64,000 nt of DNA from Actinomycetota bacterium (GTDB lineage Bacteria > Actinomycetota > Aquicultoria > UBA3085 > Oleimmundimicrobiaceae). This document shows, piece after piece, positions 4,421 to 31,850 of the stretch. The number at the start of each line of letters is the position of its first letter. The stretch's first letter is position 1. The notes below the pieces were generated by a model. That model saw nothing but the letters and a program-made list of their open reading frames with translations, searched no databases and had not been told where the DNA came from. Where the stretch lies: the NCBI GenBank assembly GCA_030017835.1, contig JASEGU010000004.1, positions 6,445 through 70,444 of the forward strand, in the 5' to 3' direction. A program made the position numbers and the translations under genes.

Positions 4421-5314
4421 TTGATGGTAAGCATAGCGAAAGAGAGAGGTCTTGAGAAAAATAGACGCCTGATCAAGAGCCTTATCGGGCCAACCAGGGT
4501 AATATATACGGATGTGGACGGAACCCTGGTTGGCCCGAAGGGCTCTCTTTTTAGAGCGGCCGATGGCAGCCTCACTTTGGCTGCGGCCAAGGCCATAATG
4601 CTGGCGAGCGAACGTGGCATCGATATCGTGATGGTCTCGGGAAGAAGCGCCCGCCAACTCTTCGGCGATGCTCGAATTTTGGGCTTTAATAACTACATCG
4701 CCGAGATGGGCTGCGAGATAGTCTATGGAGGCGGATCGGAGATAGTCAAAAACTTCGAAGACCTGGCGGGGAGCGATGCCGGTCTCTATGAAGCCATAGC
4801 AAAATCCGGCTCGGTAGAGCTCCTCTTCGAGAGGTACCCTGGCAGGCTGGAATATCACACCCCTTGGTCCGAAGGAAGAAACTGCACTCATGTCTTTCGG
4901 GGTCATGTCGACATCGACCAGGCCATGAGCCTGTTGGAGAGGGAGGGCTTAAAAGATCTCAAGCTCATCGACAACGGAATAATCGCCCGTAGAGGCACGC
5001 TGGACAAATCCGTAAAAGAGATCCACGCCTATCACCTGATGCCGAGGTCGGCATCGAAGCAGAGCGGGCTCGCAAGAGATATGGAAATCCGAAAGATACC
5101 TAGGAAGACGACCATTGCCATCGGCGACGCCGTCTCGGACGTGGCAATGGCCGAGCACGTCGGAGTCTTCTTCCTGGTAAGAAATGCCCTGATGTCTAAA
5201 GAGTGCCTCGGACTTGAAGGGGAGATTGCAAAATACAAAAATGTCTTCGTCACCGAGGGCGAGGTGGGCGAGGGCTTTGCTGAGGTCGTTGAGCTTGCGT
5301 TGGAGGATCGATAG
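4421..5314 (+). CDS. HAD-superfamily (IIB-like) phosphatase
   Basis: Motif I is VIYTDVDGTLVGP, and the C-terminus carries GDAVSDVAMAE (motif IV). No further subfamily call. Confidence 0.65.
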   Translation: MMVSIAKERGLEKNRRLIKSLIGPTRVIYTDVDGTLVGPKGSLFRAADGSLTLAAAKAIMLASERGIDIVMVSGRSARQLFGDARILGFNNYIAEMGCEIVYGGGSEIVKNFEDLAGSDAGLYEAIAKSGSVELLFERYPGRLEYHTPWSEGRNCTHVFRGHVDIDQAMSLLEREGLKDLKLIDNGIIARRGTLDKSVKEIHAYHLMPRSASKQSGLARDMEIRKIPRKTTIAIGDAVSDVAMAEHVGVFFLVRNALMSKECLGLEGEIAKYKNVFVTEGEVGEGFAEVVELALEDR

Positions 5315-5330
5315 GATCACTTTCAAACAC

Positions 5331-13358: not shown

Positions 13359-15515
13359 TTATCTCTCTTCTTCTACAATAATATATAAGAGAGCGACAAT
13401 TGCAAACATTATGGTTGCCGCGGCAGCGGCCGCTCCGGTGTCGTTGAAGATGAAGGCGGCCAGCGCCCCAGATGAGGTGCCAATAAAGCCCGCGACCAGG
13501 CTGGGGCGCTCCCGCTTAAGCTTATCGAAGAAGCCGACCGGGCGGAAGAAGAGCATCGGGGAGACGAGCAGGGTGGCAAGGAGTATCCTCGTCCAGACCG
13601 TATATTTCATGCCCCGGTAATTCATGGCTATCTTCCGTCTTGTGATTTCCAACAGCTCCTTTACCCCGCCCTCGTAGATCATCATGACGCTCCGCCCCGC
13701 ATGGCTGGTCGCCCCGCCCCGAAATATGTCTATGGCCAAAAAGATGAGAAGGGCTCCGAGGGCGGCTCCGGCGACGTAGAGAAAGTGCCTCCTTTTGAGC
13801 GAGCCCTGAAACAGGACTATCAGAGTGATGGCGAAACCGACCGAGGCGGCTATGGTTCCTCCGACGTTGGCTCCCAGGGCGGGATGTCCTATCGCCACCA
13901 CCACGGCCGCAAACATCAGGCCGGCCAGAAGATGGTGCGCTCTCAATCGAAGCTTCTTTACATCGAGCAAGGATGTTATGCCGATTATGCTCGCCCCGAT
14001 CAGAATGCCCATATATTCGTTTCCGATGCCGTAAAATCTGGCTCCGATGTTGGGACAGTAGCCCAAGATTGAGGTCCTTATGAGGTTCCAGCCGGTCATC
14101 ATGTCAAGGGTCAGGATGACCACGGTCAAGAGGCAGATCAGGACTATCGGCATAAGTTGCGAGCCCTTGAAATAGCGGGCGCACATGACGATGGCGCCCG
14201 CTATGGCTGATACGAGGAGAATCGGCAGAATCATGTGACCGTAGTCGATGGGGGCGAATATTTCGAAGGCCACGGGTATGCTGAGCAGCCAAAGAAAGAT
14301 CACCTGGATGGCCCCCACCAGTCTCTTTGGGATATTTTTGAAGAATGAAACAAGGGCGGCCAGGATGACCATTATCGAAACTAAGGTAACATAGCCTTTG
14401 AGCAGCGGGACTCTGGCTATCGCTTTATTCTCATACCTGGTGCTCATCCGCCCCATGTAAGATGGGTCAACCCTTCTGTCCAAGAACCTTATTGGCCTGC
14501 CCGTCATCTCCTCTCCCTTTTCGGCGCCGAGGATGCTCAAGATGGTCGGGGCGATATCGGTGCTGTCGACTATCCCAGGCCACCTGGTCGTATCCGAGAT
14601 CAAAAGGCCTCCATCGACGCTAGCTCCGATCATAATTGCGGGAGCCAGAAAGTTGCCCCGCTCCATCGCCTCAGGCGGGTTGGAGGGAGCGAGGAGCATT
14701 AGGGTGGTATCATCACCCAAGATGCTCAAAACCTCGCCAAGATAGCGGTCGACCGCCTCCATCTTGAATTTGCGCCTCTTGATGATGGCCTCTTCCGTAT
14801 ATAGATTATTTCTGCTCTCAAGACGAGTCGTATCCCCGAGCTCGACGACCAGAAGGTCGGATGTGGCAAGCAGGTCCTTGGTCTTTGTAAAGAGCGCGGC
14901 GTAGTCGGTTATCGTTCCCGTCTCTTTAGAGATAGTGTTGGTCGCGGCCGAGACGTCGCCAAGGTAAGTCAAGCCCAGCTCGTCCATGGTTATCAATGAG
15001 GCCTCCCTGTGAGGCTCGCCCACGTTATCGCCGTTTCCAATGAGGGCCGCCTTGAGGCCACCCTCCTTTAGGGCTTTGCCCAGAGAGCCCGGCAGGTTGC
15101 TTCTGGGGATCGTCTTCGAGGTGGCTATGATGTTGGCGATCGAAAGGTTGGCTATGCTGCCCAAGGGAGGCTCGATGCCGGTCCTCTGGAGAAAGATGTC
15201 GGACGCAAGGATTCCGCTTGGATGGACCTCGTCCCGGTTGAAAGATTCGCCAGCCGTCCCGCCCGTCTTGGTCTTTGCCCCGACTCCAATGCAGAGATAG
15301 CCGTCATAAGGGTTTGGACCCGCCTGGGTCCTGACGTTCATGAGGCCTGCGGCGCCCTCTTTGGCAATTTTTGATAGGTTCGGCGCCGCGGCCTCGGCAA
15401 GCTCGCTCGCCCCAAGACCGTTGGTGATGACCATGATAACTTTTGGTTTGGCTTCTGCGGCCGCCTTGGGCGCGCCTCCCAGGGCGGCCGCAAGTAAAGA
15501 GATGAGGGCGAACAA
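13359..15515 (-). CDS. large membrane protein with an N-terminal exported alkaline-phosphatase-superfamily-like domain and a C-terminal polytopic (about 10 TM) domain
   Basis: Signal peptide, then a domain ending with the sulfatase/LtaS-like motif DIAPTILSILG, then many TM helices. Family assignment is tentative. Confidence 0.5.
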   Translation of the reverse strand: MFALISLLAAALGGAPKAAAEAKPKVIMVITNGLGASELAEAAAPNLSKIAKEGAAGLMNVRTQAGPNPYDGYLCIGVGAKTKTGGTAGESFNRDEVHPSGILASDIFLQRTGIEPPLGSIANLSIANIIATSKTIPRSNLPGSLGKALKEGGLKAALIGNGDNVGEPHREASLITMDELGLTYLGDVSAATNTISKETGTITDYAALFTKTKDLLATSDLLVVELGDTTRLESRNNLYTEEAIIKRRKFKMEAVDRYLGEVLSILGDDTTLMLLAPSNPPEAMERGNFLAPAIMIGASVDGGLLISDTTRWPGIVDSTDIAPTILSILGAEKGEEMTGRPIRFLDRRVDPSYMGRMSTRYENKAIARVPLLKGYVTLVSIMVILAALVSFFKNIPKRLVGAIQVIFLWLLSIPVAFEIFAPIDYGHMILPILLVSAIAGAIVMCARYFKGSQLMPIVLICLLTVVILTLDMMTGWNLIRTSILGYCPNIGARFYGIGNEYMGILIGASIIGITSLLDVKKLRLRAHHLLAGLMFAAVVVAIGHPALGANVGGTIAASVGFAITLIVLFQGSLKRRHFLYVAGAALGALLIFLAIDIFRGGATSHAGRSVMMIYEGGVKELLEITRRKIAMNYRGMKYTVWTRILLATLLVSPMLFFRPVGFFDKLKRERPSLVAGFIGTSSGALAAFIFNDTGAAAAAATIMFAIVALLYIIVEEER

Positions 15516-17294: not shown

Positions 17295-18035
17295 TCACCC
17301 TTTATCGGCCCCGCCTAGGGGCCTCTTCTTTGGAATCCCAGCCCTTCTGGGGTATTGCTTGGGCGTGGGAACCAGTTTTTTTATTATCACGATTGTTCTT
17401 TTGGCTTCAACGAAAGGAACGTCTATCTCTCTTGCGGAGACCATGGCGCCCCCAAGCTCGTTTGCTCCCCTCTCTGCCGCGTCGATCTCGCTCAAGCTCA
17501 AGTTTGCTTTCTGGGCCAAGAGCGAACCGCCGATCTTAAGGATGGGTAAGGCATATTCCGCCAGAACAGAGAGGGGCGCAACCGCTCTTGCTAGAGCCAG
17601 GTCGAACTGCTCTCTGTTGTCCCTATTTATACCATAATCCTCGGCTCGGCAACAGACCGCCTGGATCCCATCAAGGCCCATTCTCTCTATCAAGCCCTGT
17701 AAAAAATCAACCTTCTTCTTGATGGAGTCCAAAAGAATCGTGTTTAAGTGGGGAAAGGCTATCTTTAGGGGCAGGCCCGGAAGGCCTGCCCCGCTTCCGA
17801 TATCTATCACCCTCTCTGTGCAAGAGAAGTCGTGGACGAGCTTAAGGCTCAAGGAGTCAAGGAAGTGCTTGCTGGCGATCTCCTCCTCTTCGGTTATGGC
17901 GGTAAGGGCGGCCCTCTTGTTCCCTGCTACGATCTCGTCCAAAAAGATCTCAAAAAGCTTCATCTTTTCCTCATCAAGCTCGATCTTTAGGGCGCCAGCC
18001 CCCTTGACGAGAAGATCTCGGCTCTTCGCTCTCAT
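17295..18035 (-). CDS. rsmG: 16S rRNA (guanine527-N7)-methyltransferase RsmG/GidB
   Basis: SAM motif DIGSGAGLPGLPLKIAFP, and a position between mnmG and parA. Confidence 0.85.
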   Translation of the reverse strand: MRAKSRDLLVKGAGALKIELDEEKMKLFEIFLDEIVAGNKRAALTAITEEEEIASKHFLDSLSLKLVHDFSCTERVIDIGSGAGLPGLPLKIAFPHLNTILLDSIKKKVDFLQGLIERMGLDGIQAVCCRAEDYGINRDNREQFDLALARAVAPLSVLAEYALPILKIGGSLLAQKANLSLSEIDAAERGANELGGAMVSAREIDVPFVEAKRTIVIIKKLVPTPKQYPRRAGIPKKRPLGGADKG

Positions 18036-19924
18036 TCGTCCGCACTCCGCTTTTTCCGCTCCAAGTGGATCAACAGCGCCAAGGCATCGGCCGGGGTGAC
18101 TCCGGGAACCCGGGTGGCCTGCCCCAGCGAACGGGGGCCGACCCTGGCCAGGCCCTCGCGCGCCCTAAAGGAGAGGCCGTGAAGCTCGTGGAAGTCTGTC
18201 CCCTCGGGGATGAGCCTCTCTTCCATCTTCTTTTGGCGCTTTACCTGTTCCATCTGACGCTTGGTGTAGCCTTCGTATTTAATCTCCGTCTCGACAATTT
18301 TCTTGGCATCTGCCGAGACCTTCTCTCCTTTACGAAAATCTTCGTAAAGTTTAGGAAAGGATGCTTCGAGCTCATCGTGGCAGACTTCGGGTCGGCGCAG
18401 GATCTCGGCCAGGCTGGTCGGCCTCTTTATCCCACTGCTTTTCAGGGCTCTCAATGCCTCGTTGTTGGCCTGGCTTGGAACGAGCCTTGTGCTTTTAAGG
18501 CCGGCTGTCTCGACAAGAATGGCCCTCCTCTTCCTCTCCACCAGCTCCATCCTCTCTTTGGAGATGAGGCCAAGCTCGTGTCCTATCTTCGATAGCCTAA
18601 GGTCTGCGTTGTCTCCTCGCAAGATGAGCCGATGTTCGGCCCTTGAGGTATACATGCGATAGGGCTCGGCATGCTCCTTGGTCACCAGATCGTCTACGAG
18701 AACTCCCATGTAGGCCTGGGAGCGCTCCAGGACCAAGGGGGGCTTCCCTTTGACCTTTAGGGCGGCATTTATTCCGGCCAGAAGACCTAGGGCAGCCGCC
18801 TCTTCATATCCGGTCGTGCCGACTACCTGGCCGGCCATAAAAAGGCCGTCTACCAGCTTGGTCTCCAGATTCGGCTTGAGCTGGCTCGCGATGACGTAGT
18901 CGTATTCGACGGCATATCCCGGTCTAACCATCTTTGCCCTTTCGAGGCCGGGGGTGGATCTGACCACCTCCAGCTGCGCCTTGGCCGGAAGTGCCGTGGT
19001 GAGCCCTTGCAAGTAGACCTCGTTGGTCTCCAGGCCCTCGGGCTCGATAAAGACCGGGTGGCGGGCCTTTTCCGGAAAATTTACAACCTTTCTGTCGATC
19101 GAGGGACAGTTTCTCGGGCCGCGACTCTCTATAATTCCGGTCTTAATCGGAGAGAGATGCATCAGACCAAGAAGTTTCTTGTGCGTCGCCTCGTTGGTAT
19201 AGGTGAGGAAGCAAGGAATGTTGGGCGTCTTCCTGGGCTTGGAGGAGCCGGAGAAGCTCAAGGGGCCCGGGTCGCCGGGCTGAATCTCCATTTTCGAATA
19301 GTCGACGCTCCTTCCATCCAGCCTTGGAGGGGTGGCCGTCTGAAGCCTTCCCAGCTCAAAGCCAAGCTCCTTGAGGCTTCCGGAAAGCGCTCTTGCAGGC
19401 GCTTCGCCCATCCTGCCCCCCGCTATCTCAGTGTCGCCGATGACCAGGCGGCCATTTAGAAATGTGCCCGTCGTCAGGATGACCACGGAAGACCGATGGC
19501 CCCGCCCGTCCTCCAGTTCGACCCCAAGGATTCCCGTCCCTTCCTTTTTGATTCCGCTTACCGTTCCCGGAATTCGAGAGATACCTGCCCGCAAAAGGAG
19601 CTTTGCCATCTTGGCACCATATTTCCGTTTGTCTATCTGAGCTCTCAGTGCCTGGACGGCAGGGCCCTTGCTCCTATTTAACATCTTGATCTGGATCAGC
19701 GTCTCATCGGCGAGCCTAGCCATCCACCCACCCAGAGCATCAATCTCTTTTACCAGATGTCCCTTGCCGATCCCTCCGATAGATGGGTTGCAGGGCATCA
19801 GGGCCACCCTCTCCGCATCCATGGTTATTATGGCAACCCGCAGACCCATCCCAGCTGCAGCCAAAGCTGCCTCAGAGCCAGCGTGACCTGCTCCAATGAC
19901 GATGCAATCGAAGGGTTTTTCCAT
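18032..19924 (-). CDS. mnmG: tRNA uridine 5-carboxymethylaminomethyl modification enzyme MnmG/GidA
   Basis: 630 aa. FAD motif FDCIVIGAGHAGSEAALAAA. Full-length MnmG architecture. Confidence 0.9.
   Translation of the reverse strand: MEKPFDCIVIGAGHAGSEAALAAAGMGLRVAIITMDAERVALMPCNPSIGGIGKGHLVKEIDALGGWMARLADETLIQIKMLNRSKGPAVQALRAQIDKRKYGAKMAKLLLRAGISRIPGTVSGIKKEGTGILGVELEDGRGHRSSVVILTTGTFLNGRLVIGDTEIAGGRMGEAPARALSGSLKELGFELGRLQTATPPRLDGRSVDYSKMEIQPGDPGPLSFSGSSKPRKTPNIPCFLTYTNEATHKKLLGLMHLSPIKTGIIESRGPRNCPSIDRKVVNFPEKARHPVFIEPEGLETNEVYLQGLTTALPAKAQLEVVRSTPGLERAKMVRPGYAVEYDYVIASQLKPNLETKLVDGLFMAGQVVGTTGYEEAAALGLLAGINAALKVKGKPPLVLERSQAYMGVLVDDLVTKEHAEPYRMYTSRAEHRLILRGDNADLRLSKIGHELGLISKERMELVERKRRAILVETAGLKSTRLVPSQANNEALRALKSSGIKRPTSLAEILRRPEVCHDELEASFPKLYEDFRKGEKVSADAKKIVETEIKYEGYTKRQMEQVKRQKKMEERLIPEGTDFHELHGLSFRAREGLARVGPRSLGQATRVPGVTPADALALLIHLERKKRSADE
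18527..18905. repeat. 379-bp direct repeat copy 1 (internal to mnmG)
   Basis: Near-identical to 19931..20309 (378/379 by eye; the single difference is tatacatgcg versus tatgcatgcg). Confidence 0.85.
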
Positions 19925-20941
19925 CTAGCCCCTCTTCCTCTCCACCAGCTCCATCCTCTCTTTGGAGATGAGGCCAAGCTCGTGTCCTATCTTCGATAGC
20001 CTAAGGTCTGCGTTGTCTCCTCGCAAGATGAGCCGATGTTCGGCCCTTGAGGTATGCATGCGATAGGGCTCGGCATGCTCCTTGGTCACCAGATCGTCTA
20101 CGAGAACTCCCATGTAGGCCTGGGAGCGCTCCAGGACCAAGGGGGGCTTCCCTTTGACCTTTAGGGCGGCATTTATTCCGGCCAGAAGACCTAGGGCAGC
20201 CGCCTCTTCATATCCGGTCGTGCCGACTACCTGGCCGGCCATAAAAAGGCCGTCTACCAGCTTGGTCTCCAGATTCGGCTTGAGCTGGCTCGCGATGACG
20301 TAGTCGTATGCCCTGCTTGTTGATGTTGAGATTTTGTCTTTAGGGGGCGCCCCTTGCGACCTTGCGGGGCAAAGCCGAAAACCAAATTCTGTCAGGTCTT
20401 CTTTAAGATTTTTTTTGCGTCTGGACATGGTAAGAAAGGTGAAGCCGAGAGAGGCTTTTGGGGCTTTATGGCTTGGAGGGAGCCCCCCCGTCGCAAGGAG
20501 GACGGTCTTGGCGCCAATGTTTCCCCCGAACATGGTTTTGACTCCAGCGGCTCTTCCCTCCTTAACGATCAGCCCATCGACCAGATCCTGCCAAAAGGAG
20601 ATATTGGAAACCTCTTCTAGCGCCGTCTTTGTGTCGACTAAATGCTCTCGTTTCAAGGAGCGAGCCTCCCTGGCAACCTCATCTTGGCCGTCCCCGCCTT
20701 TAAAAGGAAAGGATCCGCTGACAAGCTCGATCTCTCGAAGCAAGGCCCCCCTTGCGGCCTCGCTAAAAGAGGGAGGATCTTCTCGGCGGATATTGTTGTC
20801 TAGCGAGAAAGAGACCATCAAAACCCTCATGCCCATGCGGGCTGCTGCCCAAGCTGCGCGGGCCCCACACGGGCTTGCCCCAACCACTATCAAATCATAT
20901 CTTTCTATCTTTTGCTCCTTTGATTCAACGCTATTTGCCAA
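19925..20941 (-). CDS. chimeric/degenerate MnmG-like FAD protein (possible pseudogene)
   Basis: The N-terminal ~210 aa are a highly diverged GidA-like FAD domain ([23 protein letters not shown]…[10 protein letters not shown]). The C-terminal 128 aa are identical to MnmG residues encoded by the 379-bp repeat. The ORF stop abuts the mnmG start. Confidence 0.5.
19931..20309. repeat. 379-bp direct repeat copy 2 (forms the 3' part of the chimeric ORF)
   Basis: Same as 18527..18905. Flanks diverge immediately outside the repeat. Confidence 0.85.
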
Positions 20942-20979
20942 AAGTTCTCGTCATGAGAACTTTTGGCAAATAGCGCTCT

Positions 20980-22362
20980 TCACTTTCCGATGCAGAACTT
21001 TGAGAATATCCTGTCCAAGAGCTCATGGTCGGCGCCCACACCCATTATCCCCTCCAGGCTGTCTATAGCCTCTTTGATGAAGAGGGCGACGCACTCCTCG
21101 GGCTCCTTCGTCCGCAGGCCACTCTCGGCCCGGTCGAGGCTGGCCCTGGCCTCATTCAGCGCCTTGTAGTGCCTTGCATTCGTTATCACGATCTCATCCT
21201 CTGCCATCTCGGATCCCAAGACGGCCCCGCCGATGAGCTCTTTTAGCTGTTCGAGCCCTTGGCCGAATTTTGCAGAGACCGAGATGCTCCCTTTGGCTGA
21301 AAAAATCCTCTCTGCCTGGGCAACCGCCGTCTCCAGCGCCGCGTCGGATTTATTCAAAACAACAATTGTCTTGTCTGGATCAAGCCGAGAGAAAATCCCG
21401 CAATCCTCCTCGCAGATCTCTTCGCTCGAGTCGAGAACAAAGAGGGTCAATTCCGACTCCGCCACAAGATCCAGGCTCTTGGCTATGCCCTTCTCTTCCG
21501 CTTCGTTCTCGGGTCTCCTGATGCCCGCCGTGTCGTTGATGACGACGGGAAGGCCGCCTATTTCCATCCCCTCTTCAATCACATCCCTGGTCGTTCCCGG
21601 AAAATCGGTCACTATGCATCTGTCTTGGCCCGTAAGGGCATTGAGCAGACTCGACTTCCCGACATTAGTCCGTCCTATTAAGGATATGACTGCCCCCTCC
21701 CGCAAGATGCGCCCTTTTCCCCAGGTGGCAAGGAGCTCGTCTATCCTTTCCAAAAGGTCTTTTGTAAGCCCTGCTCCCTCTTCGTGAAGCAAGGGGGGGA
21801 TGTCCTCCTCGGAAAAATCAATGTTGCACTCCAGTGCAACCAGGAGGTCCCATGCGCCGCACAGAACCCCTTTAATCCTTGAGGAGAGCGCGCCCTTGAG
21901 CTGCCTGTGCGAGGCGGCTAGGCTTCGTGCCGTTTTGGCGTTGATGGTGTCGATGACGGCTTCGGCTTGGGCCAGATCTATGCGGCCATTCAAAAAAGCC
22001 CTTTTGGTAAATTCTCCTGGTTCAGCCGGTCGCGCTCCGGCCTCAACCAGGGCGTGAAAGGTCTCCCGCAAAGGGATTCTGCCGCCATGACAGTTGATTT
22101 CGATGGTGTCTTCTCTGGTGTAGGTGGCAGGTCCCTTCATCGCCGAAACCAGAACCTCATCTATGGTGTCGGCCCGGCCCGGATGAGCAATATAGCCGTG
22201 AACGATCCTGTGGGTTGCCTCTCCGAGGTCCGTGCCCCTGGGGGAGCGAAATAGCTTTTCGGCTATCTCGAAAGCATCTGTGCCGCTCATCCTGACGATG
22301 CCTATTCCCGAGCTGCCGGGGGGGGTGGAGATGGCGACGATGGTGTCCTTTTCCTCTTTCAT
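20980..22362 (-). CDS. mnmE: tRNA modification GTPase MnmE/TrmE
   Basis: N-terminal TrmE domain, G-domain (GRTNVGKSSLLN) and the C-terminal CIGK motif. Confidence 0.9.
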   Translation of the reverse strand: MKEEKDTIVAISTPPGSSGIGIVRMSGTDAFEIAEKLFRSPRGTDLGEATHRIVHGYIAHPGRADTIDEVLVSAMKGPATYTREDTIEINCHGGRIPLRETFHALVEAGARPAEPGEFTKRAFLNGRIDLAQAEAVIDTINAKTARSLAASHRQLKGALSSRIKGVLCGAWDLLVALECNIDFSEEDIPPLLHEEGAGLTKDLLERIDELLATWGKGRILREGAVISLIGRTNVGKSSLLNALTGQDRCIVTDFPGTTRDVIEEGMEIGGLPVVINDTAGIRRPENEAEEKGIAKSLDLVAESELTLFVLDSSEEICEEDCGIFSRLDPDKTIVVLNKSDAALETAVAQAERIFSAKGSISVSAKFGQGLEQLKELIGGAVLGSEMAEDEIVITNARHYKALNEARASLDRAESGLRTKEPEECVALFIKEAIDSLEGIMGVGADHELLDRIFSKFCIGK

Positions 22363-23877: not shown

Positions 23878-24221
23878 TTAATAAGATCTTCCGCTCTTCT
23901 TGTGAGCCTTCTAAGCGCTTTTTCAATCTCGTGATAGCTCTTTCCTTTTATCTTTCTTCTGGCAATAAACACTATATCGGTGGACTTATTAAGCTCCAGC
24001 CCACTCAAACGAAACGCCTCTTTGAGGCGTCGCCTTATCCGGTTCCTCTCAACCGCCCCTCCGAGCTTTCGGCTGACCGAATAGCCGACCCGGCTCTGGC
24101 CGGTGCCTCCGTTTTTTAAAATTAACATCACCAGGAGGTCATTTTTTATGGCCCTGCCTTGAGCATAGACCTTTTCAAAATCTCTCTTGCTTTTCAGGCT
24201 TGCCGTTTTGCTTTCGCCCAT
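23874..24221 (-). CDS. rnpA: ribonuclease P protein component
   Basis: 115 aa basic protein with the RNR motif ([14 protein letters not shown]), downstream of rpmH. Confidence 0.9.
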
Positions 24222-24233
24222 GCCTGGCCCCTG

Positions 24234-24368
24234 TCAGGCTGAGATCTTGGCCCTTCCTTTTCGGCGCCTTGCGGCCAGGATTGCTCGGCCAGCCCTCGTG
24301 CTCATGCGCTTTCTAAAGCCGTGGGTTTTTTTTCTTTTTCTTACATTGGGCTGAAATGTTCTCTTCAA
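24234..24368 (-). CDS. rpmH: 50S ribosomal protein L34 (TTG start)
   Basis: Hand translation of the minus strand gives (M)[43 protein letters not shown]. The ORF track missed it because it starts on TTG and is only 44 aa. Confidence 0.85.
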
Positions 24369-24526
24369 GTATATCTTCCTTCTCTCGTTTAGCTTGCCCG
24401 TTAAAACTGAGTAATTATAGCGTGGGCCATTTGGGGTGTCAAGAAAAATGAGGCATTCTTGACATTAAAAAACCTGTTAGTCGGCGCCCTTCTTCTCTCC
24501 CGCCCTAGTCACCAGCGGCAAAATTT

Positions 24527-24535
24527 TGATATAAT
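24527..24535 (+). promoter_or_regulatory. extended -10 promoter element (TGaTATAAT) directed toward the GHKL-wHTH ORF and dnaA
   Basis: TGATATAAT at 24527-24535, with a weak -35 (TAGTCA) 18 nt upstream. Confidence 0.35.
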
Positions 24536-24634
24536 TTATTGGAAACTTTGGCGCTTTTTGAAGCGGCTTGAAAAGGATGAAAAGAGACTCTCGCCCCGAA
24601 AGGGCTTTTCTTCTCTGTTTTCTAAGCCTTTTCA

Positions 24635-24660
24635 TTTCTTTCCACATCTGTGGAAAGAAA
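24635..24660. promoter_or_regulatory. perfect 12-bp inverted repeat with 2-bp spacer containing two inverted DnaA-box-like 9-mers (TTTCCACA / TGTGGAAA)
   Basis: TTTCTTTCCACA-tc-TGTGGAAAGAAA. It sits upstream of dnaA in the rpmH-dnaA intergenic region. It could be an oriC element or the operator of the adjacent wHTH protein. Confidence 0.5.
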
Positions 24661-24763
24661 TGTGTAAAAGTGCGCCATTAGCCCTGTTGGCATGCTTCAT
24701 GAAAAAATTAATCTTTGGCTGAAGCTTAAGACGTCCTTGGTCCGGTGAGCTCGGCCGAACTCT

Positions 24764-25648
24764 TTGCGGGCCCCATCTTGGGCGGATACTTTTGTGGAGG
24801 AAGCTGTGAACAAGTTTTTGGAGAGGGTCCTGTCCGAAAAAGAAGATGCTAAAAAAGAGAGCCTCGCTCGGGAGGCCGCCCCTTCTTGCGCTGAGGAGAA
24901 GGGGGCCTCTTCCTTCAGGGGGTTTGCGCGAATAGCAATATATGACTCTCTCTCTTCGCCGCCACAGATAATTGAGCTCTCCTGCCAGGACCGCCAAGAG
25001 TTCATCGATTCTCTGGGAGCCAAGATATATCAGCTCTCTCACGAAGGGGGCGGGAACGCACCCTTTGCCGCCATCAAGGAGCTGGTCGAAAACCTCATAC
25101 ACGCCTCCTTTAAGGAGGTCGTCGTCACGATCCTAAACAAGGGGAACACCATAAGGATAGCCGACCAGGGGCCGGGAATCGCAAATAAAGACAAGGCCCT
25201 TGAGCCCGGTTTCTCGACTGCCACCAGCGAGATGAAGCACATCATAAAGGGGGTCGGCTCGGGCCTTCCAATCGTAAAAGAAATAGTGGGCCTATCAGGT
25301 GGGGTCATGAAGATAGAGGACAATCTTGTATCTGGGTCGGTAATAACCATGGAGTTTAAAAAGATCCCCGAGCTGGGCGGGGTAGAATTGCCCGCCAAAA
25401 AGAAGCCTTCTCCCCTTACGATGACGCTTTCCAATCGGCAAAAAAAAGTGTTATTCTTAGTTGCTGAGGTCGGCCCAATCGGTCCCTCAGAGATGGCCTC
25501 TGAGCTAAGCATGAGCCTTAGCACTGCCTATAGAGACTTAAGGTCTCTAGAGGACTTGGGACTACTTAGGGCTGACGACAGGGGCCGAAGGGTCTTGTCC
25601 CAAGAGGGCGTCGACTTTATGGAAAACTTTTTCGACCAAACAGGGTGA
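24764..25648 (+). CDS. GHKL (histidine-kinase-like) ATPase fused to a C-terminal winged-HTH, immediately upstream of dnaA
   Basis: N-box ELVENLIHASF, G1 ADQGPGI, G2 GVGSGLPIVKEIV, and a C-terminal MarR/ArsR-like wHTH (VLFLVAEVGPIGPSEMASELSMSLSTAYRDLRSLEDLGLL). The stop is 4 nt before the dnaA ATG. The start is uncertain; GTG/ATG alternatives lie downstream of 24764. Confidence 0.55.
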   Translation: MRAPSWADTFVEEAVNKFLERVLSEKEDAKKESLAREAAPSCAEEKGASSFRGFARIAIYDSLSSPPQIIELSCQDRQEFIDSLGAKIYQLSHEGGGNAPFAAIKELVENLIHASFKEVVVTILNKGNTIRIADQGPGIANKDKALEPGFSTATSEMKHIIKGVGSGLPIVKEIVGLSGGVMKIEDNLVSGSVITMEFKKIPELGGVELPAKKKPSPLTMTLSNRQKKVLFLVAEVGPIGPSEMASELSMSLSTAYRDLRSLEDLGLLRADDRGRRVLSQEGVDFMENFFDQTG

Positions 25649-25652
25649 TTTC

Positions 25653-27002
25653 TTGCAAGCAGACATCGCGGAGGCCTGGAAAGAGGCCGTAAAACAATTA
25701 AAGGCTGGGATGAGTGCTCCCATATCGAAGGCTTGGTTCGATAACACCTCGGCGGTTGATATGTCAAATGGTGTCGTCTTTATATCGGCTCCCAATAATT
25801 TCATCAAAGAGTGGCTCGAGACAAGACACGTCGACTCAATAAAAGAGACCCTGTCGGCTATCTTAAACGAGGATGTGCTCGTAAGCTTCATTTCTAAAGA
25901 GTTAGAAGGGGTCGCCACGTCGCCCAGGACCAAGATTCAATCAAAACCGCCAGAGACCGAGGCGAGGGGTGGGGCCGGCCTCTTAAATTCAAAATATACC
26001 TTCGAAGCTTTCGTGATCGGAAGCAGCAACCGGTTCGCCCACGCCGCCGCATTGGCCGTGGCGGAGCTTCCTTTTAAGGCTTACAACCCGCTGTTTATCT
26101 ATGGCGGCGTGGGCCTTGGAAAGACTCACCTGCTGCAGGCTGTCGGCAACTATGTCTCCCAGCATAACCGCGAACTTAAAATTAGGTATGTTTCGACGGA
26201 GAAATTTACCAACGACTTCATCAGCTCAATTGGAGATAGGGGCAAAATCTCTGGTTTTCAAAATAAATATCGCAAAGTTGATGTGTTGATGATAGACGAC
26301 ATCCAGTTTATAGCCGGCAAGGAGGCGACCCAAGAGGAGTTCTTTCACACATTTAATAATCTATATGAAGCGAATAAGCAGATGGTTATCACTAGCGACC
26401 GCCCACCAAAGGATATCTCAACCCTAGAAGACCGCCTTCGTTCGAGGTTTGAGTGCGGCCTCATCACCGATGTCCAGCCACCTGATCTGGAGACAAAGAT
26501 AGCCATTTTAAAGAGAAAGCTTAGCGATAACGACGTCGTCTCTTTCGAGGTTTTAGAGTTCATTGCTTCCAGGGTCCACTCGAATATTAGGGAGCTTGAG
26601 GGGGCGCTGACTAGGGTTCTTGCCTTTTCCTCCTTCACAAAAACCCCGATAGATATTAAGCTCGCCGAGGAGGTTTTAAGGAATATATTCTCAAACAAAG
26701 AGAGCCGACCGATATCGATTCAGGCCATACAGAATGAGGTCTGCCGCTTTTTTGGGATTTCAAAAACCGAGCTCGTCGGAAGCCGGCGGAGTCAGCCGAT
26801 TGTTTATCCTAGACAGATTGCTATGTACCTATCGAGAGAATTAACTGATATGTCTCTTCCAAAGATCGGCGAGGAGTTTGGTGGAAGAGATCACACAACG
26901 GTGATGCACGCCAATTTAAAGATAGAAAGGCTAATAAGCGAAAGGCGGGAGATATATAACCAGATTCAGGAGTTAATTAATAAGATAAAACAGAGATCTT
27001 AA
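25653..27002 (+). CDS. dnaA: chromosomal replication initiator DnaA
   Basis: AAA+ Walker A GGVGLGKTHLL, plus domain IV with the basic-loop/HTH C-terminus. Confidence 0.95.
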   Translation: MQADIAEAWKEAVKQLKAGMSAPISKAWFDNTSAVDMSNGVVFISAPNNFIKEWLETRHVDSIKETLSAILNEDVLVSFISKELEGVATSPRTKIQSKPPETEARGGAGLLNSKYTFEAFVIGSSNRFAHAAALAVAELPFKAYNPLFIYGGVGLGKTHLLQAVGNYVSQHNRELKIRYVSTEKFTNDFISSIGDRGKISGFQNKYRKVDVLMIDDIQFIAGKEATQEEFFHTFNNLYEANKQMVITSDRPPKDISTLEDRLRSRFECGLITDVQPPDLETKIAILKRKLSDNDVVSFEVLEFIASRVHSNIRELEGALTRVLAFSSFTKTPIDIKLAEEVLRNIFSNKESRPISIQAIQNEVCRFFGISKTELVGSRRSQPIVYPRQIAMYLSRELTDMSLPKIGEEFGGRDHTTVMHANLKIERLISERREIYNQIQELINKIKQRS

Positions 27003-27215
27003 TAACTCTAAGCCTGTTGATTATTTGTGTATCAATTATTAACAATTTTGGGATTTAAAAATTTCACAACTTTTATTAATAGTTCTAAATAATTTATTAG
27101 ATGTTTGTGAACAATTAAGAGACGGGGCAAGCTCTGTAATTAACAATTCAACAAGCTCTAATATTATTACTATTTTTATTTATTAATATATCAATCAATA
27201 CTAAGAGGTGTTTAA
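27003..27215. promoter_or_regulatory. oriC-type AT-rich dnaA-dnaN intergenic region (DNA-unwinding element plus degenerate DnaA boxes)
   Basis: About 25% GC over 213 bp, against about 58% for the surrounding window. Degenerate boxes TGTGTATCA (27026-34) and TGTGAACAA (27106-14). There are runs of TTATT/ATTAA. Confidence 0.55.
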
Positions 27216-28319
27216 ATGTTTATCACTTGTGAGCAGAAAGAGTTATTGGAAGAGATTCAAGTAGTTCAAAAGGCCGCATCCATCCGGAGCACCCTCCCCA
27301 TCTTAAGCGGCATACTTTTTAGCGCTTCGGCCGGCAGGCTACATCTTACCACCACCAACTTGGAATTATCTATACATTCCAGCCTGCCGGCCGAAGTCAA
27401 AGAAGAGGGATCTTTAGTCGTTCAGGCTCGCCTAATTGGAGAGATCATTAAAAACCTTTCTGATTTAAAAATAGAAATGTTTTTAGATTCCTCCACAAAC
27501 CAACTAAAATTAACCAATTCCAAGTCGGTCTTCAATATAAAAATCCTTTCGCCAGAGGACTTTCCAAAGTTTCCCACGGCCGAGTTGGACAATCAGTTCA
27601 CCATCAAGTCGGAAGACCTCTCTAACGCTATAAGACAGGCCATAAAAGCCGCCTCTATTGATGAGACTCGGCCCATCTTGACCGGCGTCCTTATTGTAGT
27701 AAATAAAAATAGGTTAAAGATGGTTGCCACCGACAGCTATCGTTTAGCCATAAAAGAGATCCCAATAATCAACAAAGAAGACGTCAAGATAAAGGCCATC
27801 ATTCCCTCAAGAACGCTCGGGGAGCTTCTTAAGATTGTCTCTGATGGACGGAGCGAAGTAGTGGTGGGAGAGATGGGAAATCAACTCGCCTTTAAGATTA
27901 AAAATACCACCCTGATAACTCGGCTAATAGAGGGGCAGTATCCAAACTATCAACAGATCCTCCCAGAAAAGTATGAGATGAATTTTGTGGTGGATCGAGA
28001 AAATCTTCTTGGCGCCGTAAAGAGGATATCCTTATTTACCCAAAGCAACTCTTTAATAAAAATGGCGGCAAGAGATGGCTCTCTTGAGCTCAGCGCCTCT
28101 GCTGCTGAACTTGGTGAGGCCAAAGAGGCAGTAGATTATAGGGGGACGGGAGACGGATTGACAGTGGCCTTTAATAGTCAATATCTGATCGACGGCCTTA
28201 GTAGTATTCAGGGAGAGGAGGTATCCTTTGATATGATAGACAACATGAAACCGACCTCAATCACAGGAGACAAGAAGGATGACTTCCTCCACCTCTTAAT
28301 GCCGGTTAGAACCGGATGA
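27216..28319 (+). CDS. dnaN: DNA polymerase III beta sliding clamp
   Basis: 367 aa, three-domain clamp, canonical position after dnaA. Confidence 0.9.
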   Translation: MFITCEQKELLEEIQVVQKAASIRSTLPILSGILFSASAGRLHLTTTNLELSIHSSLPAEVKEEGSLVVQARLIGEIIKNLSDLKIEMFLDSSTNQLKLTNSKSVFNIKILSPEDFPKFPTAELDNQFTIKSEDLSNAIRQAIKAASIDETRPILTGVLIVVNKNRLKMVATDSYRLAIKEIPIINKEDVKIKAIIPSRTLGELLKIVSDGRSEVVVGEMGNQLAFKIKNTTLITRLIEGQYPNYQQILPEKYEMNFVVDRENLLGAVKRISLFTQSNSLIKMAARDGSLELSASAAELGEAKEAVDYRGTGDGLTVAFNSQYLIDGLSSIQGEEVSFDMIDNMKPTSITGDKKDDFLHLLMPVRTG

Positions 28320-28355
28320 TAAAATATATTATTATATTAAAAAATAGGAAAAAGA

Positions 28356-29468
28356 TTGCATCTTTTTAGAGCAGAGCTCCTCAGCTTTAGAGGTCACAAA
28401 GAGGCTTCATTCGAGCCCATCCCTGGCATAAATGTGATAATCGGTGATAATGGCTGCGGCAAAAGCAACCCGCTAGAGGGAATCTTCGTCCTTATGAGAG
28501 GGAGGTCCTTTGGGACGAGCCAAGACGATGCTTTGATTCAACTCGGAGAGAGGGCGTCGGTAATTAGGGGGAGGTTTAAGGGAGAGAAGAGAGACTCTAA
28601 AATCGAAATGGGCATAAATGCTGACGCCGGAAAAGAGATTAGACTGAACGGCTTAAGGCTGGAGAAATTAAAAGATCTTAAGAGTTCTTTTGGAATAGTC
28701 ACCCTCTCTCCTGAGGATCTTAAGCTCGTCAAAGGTGGCCCCGAAGAGAAGAGGGCGCTCATGGATGAGGCTGGGGGGCCCTTGGCCCAAAATATGACCA
28801 TGCGAGGATGAGCCCTTTTAAGGTTTTAAAGCAACGAAACAACCTCTTAAAACAGATCAAATTTGGGAGAGCAGGCCCGCTCAAGCCCTGAGATATGGAA
28901 CGAGAGACCGATCATAACCGGAAAGAGGTTGATGGATGAGAGAAGAGAGACGGTTCAGCCTTTGAGCGAAGTCTGTCAAGATGTCTTCAATGAGATTTAC
29001 GGCCAGAGGCGCAGCCTGAGCCTAATGTGTTCGAACGAAATCTTTAAAAAAGACTCTCCGTCGAGGAGCCTCTCAAAGACCTCTTGGAAAAAGGGGGGGG
29101 CCGATGAGATTGAAAGGGGAACAAGCCTCATCGGCCCCCATAGAGACGACCCAACGATCCTTCTTGGGGGAAAAGAGGGGCCCAGGCCATATGTCTCCCA
29201 GGGCGAACAGAGGGCCATCAGCTTGGCCCTGAGGCTGGCCCACTATGAGCTCTTGTGTAGAGATGAACACGGGATGAACCTGTTTCTAATGGACGACGCC
29301 ATGTCGGAGATGGACGAGAAGAGAAGAGACAACCTCTTAAATTTCATCTCCGGGCTCAAACAGACCACAATCACCAGCACAAATCTCTACTACTTCAAGG
29401 ACGAGCATCTTAAAATGACGAACCTGATTGAAATGGGAGAAGGCGAGAGGAAGAGCAAGGCTTGTTGA
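28356..29468 (+). pseudogene. recF: recF disrupted by two compensating frameshifts (N-terminus and C-terminus in frame 0, middle ~100 nt in another frame)
   Basis: N-terminal Walker A GDNGCGKSN in frame 0. The middle segment …LGPKYDHARMSPFKVLKQRNNLLKQ… is in another frame. The C-terminal signature LFLMDDAMSEMD is back in frame 0. Frame 0 has three in-frame stops over 28809-28850. Shift sites are a G6 run at 28773-28778 and about 28855-28870. Confidence 0.7.
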
Positions 29469-29908
29469 GGGACATCAAGGATGTTTTACGAGACCTAATA
29501 TCCGACCTCAACATGGGCAAGCTGATGGAGGAGGCCAGGATCGTAAGGGGCTGGAGAGATATAGTCGGCGAGCACGTCGCCGAGAATAGCTCCCCAATCT
29601 CGCTTGTGCGCGGCACCCTCTTGATAGGAGCCTACAATTCAGCCTGGTCGAATCAGCTCAGCATGATGAGGACAGGCCTCGTGGAGGAGATAAACAGCCA
29701 CCTTGGCAGAGAGGTCGTAAAAGAGATAAGGTTCAAGCTGATCGAAAAGGCGAAGGAGGAGAGCGATGAGGCCGCCCCCGAAGAACGCACGAGTCTTTTT
29801 GGCGAGGGAGAGAAAAAGAAGATTCTTGGCGATCTCTTGTTAAATGTCGAGGATGCTGAGGTGAGAGAGAGCCTAAAAAGGGCCATTTTCCTAGATGATC
29901 AAAAATGA
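29462..29908 (+). CDS. DUF721 (DciA-like) protein
   Basis: Position between recF and gyrB, as Rv0004/YaaB. …RIVRGWRDIVGEHVAENSSPISLVRGTLLIGAYNSAWSNQL… matches the DUF721 pattern. Confidence 0.65.
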   Translation: MLRDIKDVLRDLISDLNMGKLMEEARIVRGWRDIVGEHVAENSSPISLVRGTLLIGAYNSAWSNQLSMMRTGLVEEINSHLGREVVKEIRFKLIEKAKEESDEAAPEERTSLFGEGEKKKILGDLLLNVEDAEVRESLKRAIFLDDQK

Positions 29909-29912
29909 TTAA

Positions 29913-31850
<1,938 letters not shown>

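Follow-up and report, generated by a model that had tools for sequence, protein, structure and literature searches.

A truncated mnmG paralog upstream of mnmG in deep-branching Actinomycetota, with a 3′ end probably homogenised by repeated gene conversion

Introduction

Concerted evolution of bacterial paralogs by RecA-dependent gene conversion is established for tufA/tufB in Salmonella and E. coli and for the rRNA operons. "Mosaic" tandem paralogs with islands of conversion have been reported as well (e.g. PMC3728101; bioRxiv 10.1101/2025.10.29.685298). Here we describe a locus of comparable kind in a 64,000-nucleotide stretch of an Actinomycetota metagenome-assembled genome (MAG; contig JASEGU010000004.1 of assembly GCA_030017835.1), referred to below as the window. 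Between mnmE and mnmG the window carries an open reading frame of 338 codons (ORF338) that shares its 3′ end almost base for base with mnmG. Very probably, ORF338 derives from a truncated mnmG copy upstream of mnmG whose 3′ end has been homogenised repeatedly by gene conversion.

MnmG (GidA) is the flavin adenine dinucleotide (FAD)/NADH subunit of the MnmE-MnmG tRNA U34 cmnm5 synthase. Both of its catalytic cysteines, C47 and C277, are essential in the E. coli protein (PMC12397908), and the first two glycines are needed for FAD binding in E. coli GidA, where G13A/G15A abolish binding (PMC1635325). Two other proteins come close in size or fold. TrmFO, also called "small GidA" (GidAS), is a folate/FAD tRNA m5U54 methyltransferase of about 450 aa (PMC1635325), and the GidA-related protein of Thermus thermophilus (PDB 2CUL, 232 aa) is a stand-alone GidA-like FAD domain without insertion and helical domains. 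Full-text literature searches returned no description of a truncated MnmG paralog beside mnmG or of conversion at this locus. Literature on the genus of the nearest named relative likewise yielded nothing relevant. Concerted evolution of tandem paralogs that involves a conversion island is in itself well known; the MnmG paralog family is undescribed.

Results and Discussion

The repeat in the window

A direct-repeat search combined with base-by-base comparison revealed that positions 18527-18905, inside mnmG, and 19931-20309, at an offset of 1404, match in 378 of 379 bases. Immediately outside both repeat ends the identity at the same offset drops to about 25%, the random level, and a 379-bp match cannot be a chance event. 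The sole mismatch is A at 18652 in mnmG (TAT, Tyr) against G at 20056 in ORF338 (CAT, His), the codons being read on the minus strand. In MnmG, the shared segment runs from the end of the FAD domain into the first helices of the helical domain; in ORF338 it makes up the C-terminus. The TAG of ORF338 (19927-19925) directly abuts the mnmG ATG (19924-19922). A first-pass annotation of the window had described the near-identical segment with its divergent flanks, the 338-aa frame with a diverged GidA-like N-terminal part of 210 aa, and its stop exactly at the start of mnmG, and all of this was borne out, the N-terminal part (X) matching the Pfam GIDA profile PF01134 over profile positions 1-150 with an E value of 3.5e-15. 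A simple tandem duplication of the 1404-bp unit was rejected, similarity being confined to 379 bp of the unit. Two other hits of the repeat search, a 30-nt repeat (D2) and an inverted repeat (I1), look like chance matches.

Related genomes

The closest MnmG relatives (P0002, P0003) are 61% identical, and their contigs have a GIDA-only gene between mnmE and mnmG. The order mnmE, truncated mnmG paralog, mnmG was found in five other independent assemblies (L081, L084, L085, L086 and L087); among named organisms, Candidatus Oleimmundimicrobium (class Ca. Aquicultoria) is nearest to the related loci. The GIDA-only paralog measures 457-480 aa in four of them, the L084 copy being cut by the contig start. 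In L081 (473 aa) the last ca. 135 aa of the paralog are 100% identical to its own MnmG, compared to about 33% before that point. Self-BLAST within each locus gave tract identities between the paralog and its own mnmG of 100% over 398 bp in L081, 97.6% over 420 bp in L084, 96.7% over 398 bp in L085 (a 251-kb contig), 91.2% over 419 bp in L086 (a 342-kb contig) and 99.7% over 314 bp in L087. The tracts share one position in the gene. Their 5′ borders scatter by a few codons, corresponding to about codons 327-341, and their 3′ borders correspond to about mnmG codon 466-467 in all loci but L087, where the tract stops earlier, near codon 435. Two more contigs break inside the tract, as is expected of a genuine repeat; L082, an independent Joint Genome Institute (JGI) assembly of the L081 organism, begins within it and L088 (Ca. 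Oleimmundimicrobium) ends within it.

The 3′ end of the tract is eroding differently among genomes. In L087 the homology of the paralog breaks off after EPYRMYTSR and an unrelated tail follows (L087:5297-5374), and in L086 a 7-codon insertion lies within the tract (ca. 5300-5330).

More distant loci came from a GTDB scan with MnmG, in which the relatives were at most 52% identical among the matches listed. At least five of these Actinomycetota MAG loci (L001, L002, L003, L005, L052) have a short GidA-like gene upstream, without a high-identity tract; in L002 and L003 the homologous segment is present but diverged (68-72% identity). From this distribution the upstream-paralog arrangement appears to be ancestral. 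Homology of the segment is likewise ancestral, since it is present in diverged form in L002 and L003 and colinear in the related paralogs.

With X alone, a word-indexed homology search yielded no match; an exhaustive HMMER search returned one close homologue (P0122, 70% identity, on the contig L083 discussed below). No relative was found in a metagenome scan with X as protein, and exact-sequence look-up of ORF338, mnmG and mnmE in a contig index gave no record.

Two tandem mnmG-like genes with 66-70% DNA identity and no converted tract were also seen in Halobacteroidaceae/Halonatronum (L004:6001-9300 and L014:5974-9730), in L014 at full length (1.9-kb alignment). This is apparently an independent duplication with a different arrangement.

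Relation of the paralogs to MnmG

The protein encoded by mnmG in the window shows the Pfam domains GIDA, GIDA_C_1st and SAM_GIDA_C as well as the motifs CNPSIGG and GPRNCPSID, and with 743 bits it lies above the curated cutoff of 524.85 of the MnmG model TIGR00136. ORF338 reaches 244 bits on the same model, below the cutoff, and X shares about 35% identity with the MnmG of the window across 62 aa. The paralogs of L081 and L003 obtain 480 and 451 bits, over profile positions 1 to about 466-469 only. MnmG is the best match in sequence and structure; the paralogs are colinear with its residues 1-467 and encoded between mnmE and mnmG, but they stay below the NCBIfam cutoff.

At the catalytic-cysteine motifs around C47 (CNP[AS]IGG) and C277 (GPRYCPS), neither ORF338 nor the L081-type paralogs have a Cys at either position, and the alignment places the second motif region in the deleted part of ORF338. 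The C-terminal helical domains PF21680 and PF13932, including the MnmE-binding helix, were not found in ORF338 or the paralogs, which contain PF01134 alone and end near MnmG residue 467. The dinucleotide-binding motif GxGxxG is kept as GAGHAG in the L081-type paralogs and reads GRSPCG in L083. Compared to the intact paralogs, ORF338 shows the changes GAGHAG to GASPCG, that is GxSxxG, and TGTFL to TGGL, and it has lost most of insertion domain 2.

With 457-480 aa the paralogs are similar in length to TrmFO and, as in TrmFO, the GidA-like FAD protein is C-terminally shorter than MnmG. Identity with TrmFO was nevertheless rejected, the candidates scoring 52-77 bits on TIGR00137 and NF003739 against cutoffs of 262 and 428.65. 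The paralogs alone obtained 57-77 bits on the TrmFO models in comparison to 451-480 bits on the MnmG model; they are recent MnmG offshoots and not TrmFO.

An AlphaFold2 model of ORF338 has a predicted local distance difference test (pLDDT) score of 85-97 for the Rossmann core (residues 14-50 and 100-152) and the tract, while residues 153-213 are modelled as disordered (pLDDT below 40). Superposition on MnmG structures gave TMq values of 0.66-0.71. PDB 2CUL, which resembles ORF338 as a stand-alone GidA-like FAD domain, is a weak match with about 20% identity and a TMq of 0.42; neither linkage to mnmG nor conversion is in evidence for it.

Grouping by genome and by gene

In codon-aligned identity matrices the tract core is 97-100% identical between the two copies within a genome, compared to 66-96% between genomes. 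The N-terminal region behaves in the opposite way: identity is 58-62% among the L081-type paralogs, only 46-51% between these and any mnmG, and 70-72% among the mnmG genes. X reaches 44-50% against every sequence compared. A neighbour-joining tree of 201 N-terminal columns gave a 14-member group of MnmG only with 100% bootstrap and placed no paralog among the MnmGs; X of the window groups with the L081-type paralogs (74% bootstrap), and the paralog topology mirrors that of mnmG. According to matrices, self-BLAST and tree, grouping is by genome within the tract and by gene outside it; in addition, the identity reaches synonymous sites and is younger than the duplication. This pattern is expected under gene conversion.

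The two tract copies in the window show no synonymous difference over about 88 synonymous sites, whereas window and L083 differ in the tract with a synonymous divergence (dS) of 0.30 over about 88 such sites; the window copies were therefore homogenised after the split from L083. The X-tract junction is common to both (84-86% nucleotide identity, ca. 16% diverged) and hence older than that split. Protein-level selection alone was rejected as the cause of the tract identity, silent sites being identical too. Over the N-terminal 325 codons, the paralogs of L081, L085 and L086 have ratios of nonsynonymous to synonymous divergence (dN/dS) of 0.29-0.45 in comparison to 0.15-0.22 for the mnmG N-terminus, which indicates relaxed but real purifying selection on these paralogs. 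The His at 20056, in the segment EPYRM[YF]TS, is also His in L083 (ca. 1262), opposed to Tyr in the window's mnmG. It is either an old paralog-specific residue resisting conversion or a coincidence, for which the chance is about 0.05-0.07 at 14% divergence.

Proposed history of the locus

The account that we favour for the repeat, the conserved architecture, the grouping pattern and the degradative changes observed here begins with an ancient partial tandem duplication, which would have comprised the mnmG upstream region and about codons 1-467 in an ancestor of several deep-branching Actinomycetota lineages. A single duplication event is suggested by the single truncation point at about 466-469 together with the grouping of the N-terminal region by gene. 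Thereafter the N-terminal two thirds of the paralog would have diverged strongly, and the last 300-420 bp would have been held near-identical by repeated non-reciprocal homologous recombination (intrachromosomal gene conversion), independently in each lineage. Direct repeats about 1 kb apart could recombine in this manner, presumably by RecA-type conversion, and the strongly constrained mnmG would be the probable donor.

An old tandem duplication followed by recent gene conversion had already been suggested in the first-pass annotation, and the ancestral gene order and the grouping by genome in the tract are in accordance with it. Its picture of a central tract within a full copy needs correction: the duplication is partial and ends near codon 467, so that the converted tract is the 3′ end of the duplicate. 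The notion of a decayed copy holds for the window/L083 lineage only, where decay is clear, whereas the paralogs of sister lineages are under purifying selection.

Decay of the copy in the window

X is colinear with paralog and MnmG residues 1 to about 205, up to a TGTPP-like "GAPP" motif, and continues directly with the tract; some 135 aa are absent in-frame, mostly insertion domain 2 including the GPRxCPS motif. Between tract end and mnmG ATG, L081 and L084 have a segment of 147-176 nt, of which the window retains only GGCTAG. Where the relatives have their start codon (ATG in L081, L085 and L088; printed as GTG in L087, at the beginning of the gene call), the window and L083 read AAG, and no canonical start remains at the ancestral start position of ORF338. 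The only upstream in-frame start is a TTG inside the 3′ arm of a 23-bp hairpin.

In the window lineage the paralog has thus lost the ATG start, the second glycine of GxGxxG, about 135 aa through an in-frame deletion that extends up to the tract, and the spacer ahead of mnmG. What is left is a homologous segment of exactly 379 bp with non-homologous DNA on both sides. The abruptness of the tract borders in the window is structural: the 5′ edge is the right-hand end of the internal deletion and the 3′ edge the end of the original duplicate. ORF338 is regarded as a probable decaying remnant. It may be weakly expressed from a context of Shine-Dalgarno sequence and ATA (Table 1), and we infer that it is expressed little or not at all.

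Alternative explanations

Since the window stems from a MAG and exact repeats of about 380 bp are hard for short-read assembly, the contig could have passed twice through a collapsed repeat or joined two populations, the real genome having a single tract. Such a misassembly, which the first-pass annotation had kept as its alternative, would agree with the collapsed order of X, tract and mnmG 3′ end in the close relative L083, and also with the exact tract-TAG-ATG junction finding no match in the metagenome contig collection. The two-copy layout, however, recurs in five further assemblies that differ in sample and pipeline, some of them with contigs of 250-340 kb, and copies with 10-16 mismatches (L084, L085, L086) cannot stem from collapse. 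The window's one mismatch shows that both copies were resolved separately, and X is orthologous to the N-terminus of the relatives' paralog, so that a gene is expected between mnmE and mnmG. We consider an artefact very improbable. Even less probable is a single recent event, insertion or partial duplication, that placed a 379-bp mnmG segment in a pre-existing, unrelated diverged gene, conversion having played no part. The abrupt stop of identity and the flanks without DNA homology are what illegitimate recombination leaves, but the X-tract junction predates the split from the ca. 16% diverged L083, in the related paralogs the homologous segment occupies the same place within a colinear MnmG-like protein, and in L002 and L003 it is present yet diverged.

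A selective explanation would hold that the paralog protein needs a segment identical to MnmG, for example for a heterodimer with MnmG or for FAD binding, and that ORF338 is a working minimal subunit; conversion would then be favoured by selection and more than merely tolerated. The dN/dS values of the paralog N-termini and of X against L083 speak for it, as do the high pLDDT of Rossmann core and tract in the model of ORF338. Furthermore, the tract covers MnmG residues that contact MnmE in the cryo-electron microscopy complex (E. coli R427-S431; PMC12397908), and the Tyr-to-His difference shared by the window paralog and L083 lies in this contact region. Identity at synonymous sites points instead towards recombination as the direct cause, the window copy has lost its start codon and one glycine of the FAD motif, in which G13A/G15A abolish binding (PMC1635325), the paralogs of L002 and L003 persist without a converted tract, and the shared His may be the coincidence mentioned above. 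This explanation is not needed to account for the data and seems unlikely to us. A related proposal would see in the truncated, Cys-less paralog a working pseudoenzyme subunit that forms an asymmetric MnmG/paralog dimer through the identical segment and modulates the MnmE-MnmG complex. We regard it as doubtful; if true, the conversion tract would persist through selection for an identical interface, and ORF338 would be a minimal or dying version of the subunit.

Several points weigh against the favoured account of partial duplication and conversion. The tree is distance-based with long paralog branches, and long-branch attraction could inflate the impression of a single duplication; the single origin of the paralogs is the weakest link of the account. 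The direction of conversion from mnmG to the paralog is an inferred one. Short-read assemblers can merge near-identical copies, so that the 99.7% for the window, an upper bound, and the 100% for L081 may overstate the identity, although the loci with 10-16 mismatches still group by genome. The two-copy layout of this contig is known from its assembly only. Finally, a frame open over 338 codons with a dN/dS of 0.40 for X against L083 is at odds with a long-dead pseudogene, despite the loss of start codon, FAD motif and about 135 aa.

L083 as a possible end state

The contig with the only close homologue of X (L083:1-1992, Logan SRR23882321) is 2 kb long and has the order mnmE 3′ end, X, tract, mnmG 3′ part and rsmG. 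It lacks the 1404 bp that separate the two tract copies and a further 105 bp. Single-base indels and in-frame nonsense codons are spread over the mnmE end, X, the tract and the mnmG 3′ part. By contrast, rsmG is free of such lesions over its first 88 codons and there shares 92% identity with the window gene. Such a contig would arise if the direct repeats recombined in a lineage for which MnmEG has become dispensable; it may also be a collapsed low-coverage assembly. Loss of the MnmE-MnmG pathway appears to be under way in the L083 lineage. Many Actinomycetota lack this pathway. L083 could thus represent a natural "end state", with the direct repeats recombined and the whole mnmE-mnmG module decaying.

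Comparison with known cases of concerted evolution

Similar to tufA/tufB and comparable cases, paralogs within a genome are closer to each other than to their orthologs, but here only in a delimited tract while the rest diverges. In contrast to those cases the partner is truncated, catalytically disabled and located 1.0 kb upstream in direct orientation, and the tract is short (0.3-0.4 kb) and kept across lineages whose mnmG genes share about 60-76% DNA identity. The locus offers a clean bacterial case of long-term concerted evolution limited to a few hundred bases, across lineages otherwise 25-35% diverged in DNA. It also indicates that an odd repeat at a housekeeping locus near the replication origin is genuine biology and not a MAG artefact. 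The conserved truncated MnmG paralog lacks the catalytic cysteines, yet in some lineages purifying selection acts on it, and it is a candidate MnmG partner with a regulatory or structural role; databases label such paralogs "FAD-dependent oxidoreductase" or "MnmG, partial", or drop them.

Gene neighbourhood and expression signals

The minus-strand gene order around ORF338 is rnpA-yidD-yidC-jag-mnmE-ORF338-mnmG-rsmG-parA-parB, a cluster of the origin-proximal type (Table 1). The MnmG and MnmE proteins bear consecutive accessions from a 76.9-kb contig of an Actinomycetota MAG and NCBI lists no ORF338 protein, from which it follows that the depositor annotation did not include ORF338 as a protein.

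Table 1. Features of the mnmE-mnmG region in the window; donor and acceptor roles are predicted.
Feature	Position	Strand	Evidence or remark
mnmE, 460 aa, intact	20980..22362	-	protein identical to MDI6799431.1, "MnmE [Actinomycetota bacterium]"
Perfect 23-bp stem-loop directly after the mnmE stop	20927..20977	-	ΔG -41.6 kcal/mol, z -8.0; unique in the window
ORF338, degraded member of the truncated MnmG-paralog family	19925..20941	-	best NCBIfam match TIGR00136
X, diverged N-terminal 210 aa of ORF338, remnant of the GidA FAD domain	20310..20941	-	Pfam GIDA PF01134
Shine-Dalgarno AAGGAG (20920-15), then AAG ATA (20911-06)	20906..20920	-	alignment with the relatives' start codon
Tract copy B (presumed acceptor), ORF338 codons 211-337	19931..20309	-	378/379 match to copy A
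GAGAGGAAGAGG, last bases of tract copy B; mnmG ATG 6 nt downstream	19931..19942	-	read from the sequence
mnmG, 630 aa, intact, both catalytic cysteine motifs	18032..19924	-	protein identical to MDI6799430.1
Tract copy A (presumed donor), mnmG codons 341-466	18527..18905	-	repeat comparison
rsmG (gidB), overlaps the mnmG stop	17295..18035	-	open reading frame; same order in all related loci

The purine-rich GAGAGGAAGAGG lies at the place expected of the mnmG ribosome-binding site and is likely to serve as such. The TTG at the start of ORF338 is overlapped by the 3′ arm of the stem-loop behind mnmE. Four related contigs share the conserved stem core of this structure, TTTGCCAAA...TTTGGCAAA (L081:4346-4396, L087:3919-3969, L088:3911-3963 and L083:ca. 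350-392). A U-run follows the stem-loop in L081, L087 and L088, resembling an intrinsic terminator, and is absent in the window. The structure could be a terminator or attenuator that separates mnmE from the expression of paralog and mnmG, or a palindromic protein-binding site.

Beside the rnpA-yidC-mnmE-mnmG-parAB cluster, the G+C content falls to 0.43-0.49 at 26-30 kb and the GC skew changes there from negative to positive (window 24000-30000), which is consistent with a chromosomal replication origin inside the window. Directly downstream of parB, a conserved multi-pass membrane protein of 718-729 aa without Pfam match is encoded in the window (13359-15515, minus strand) and in L081 (L081:10521-12710).

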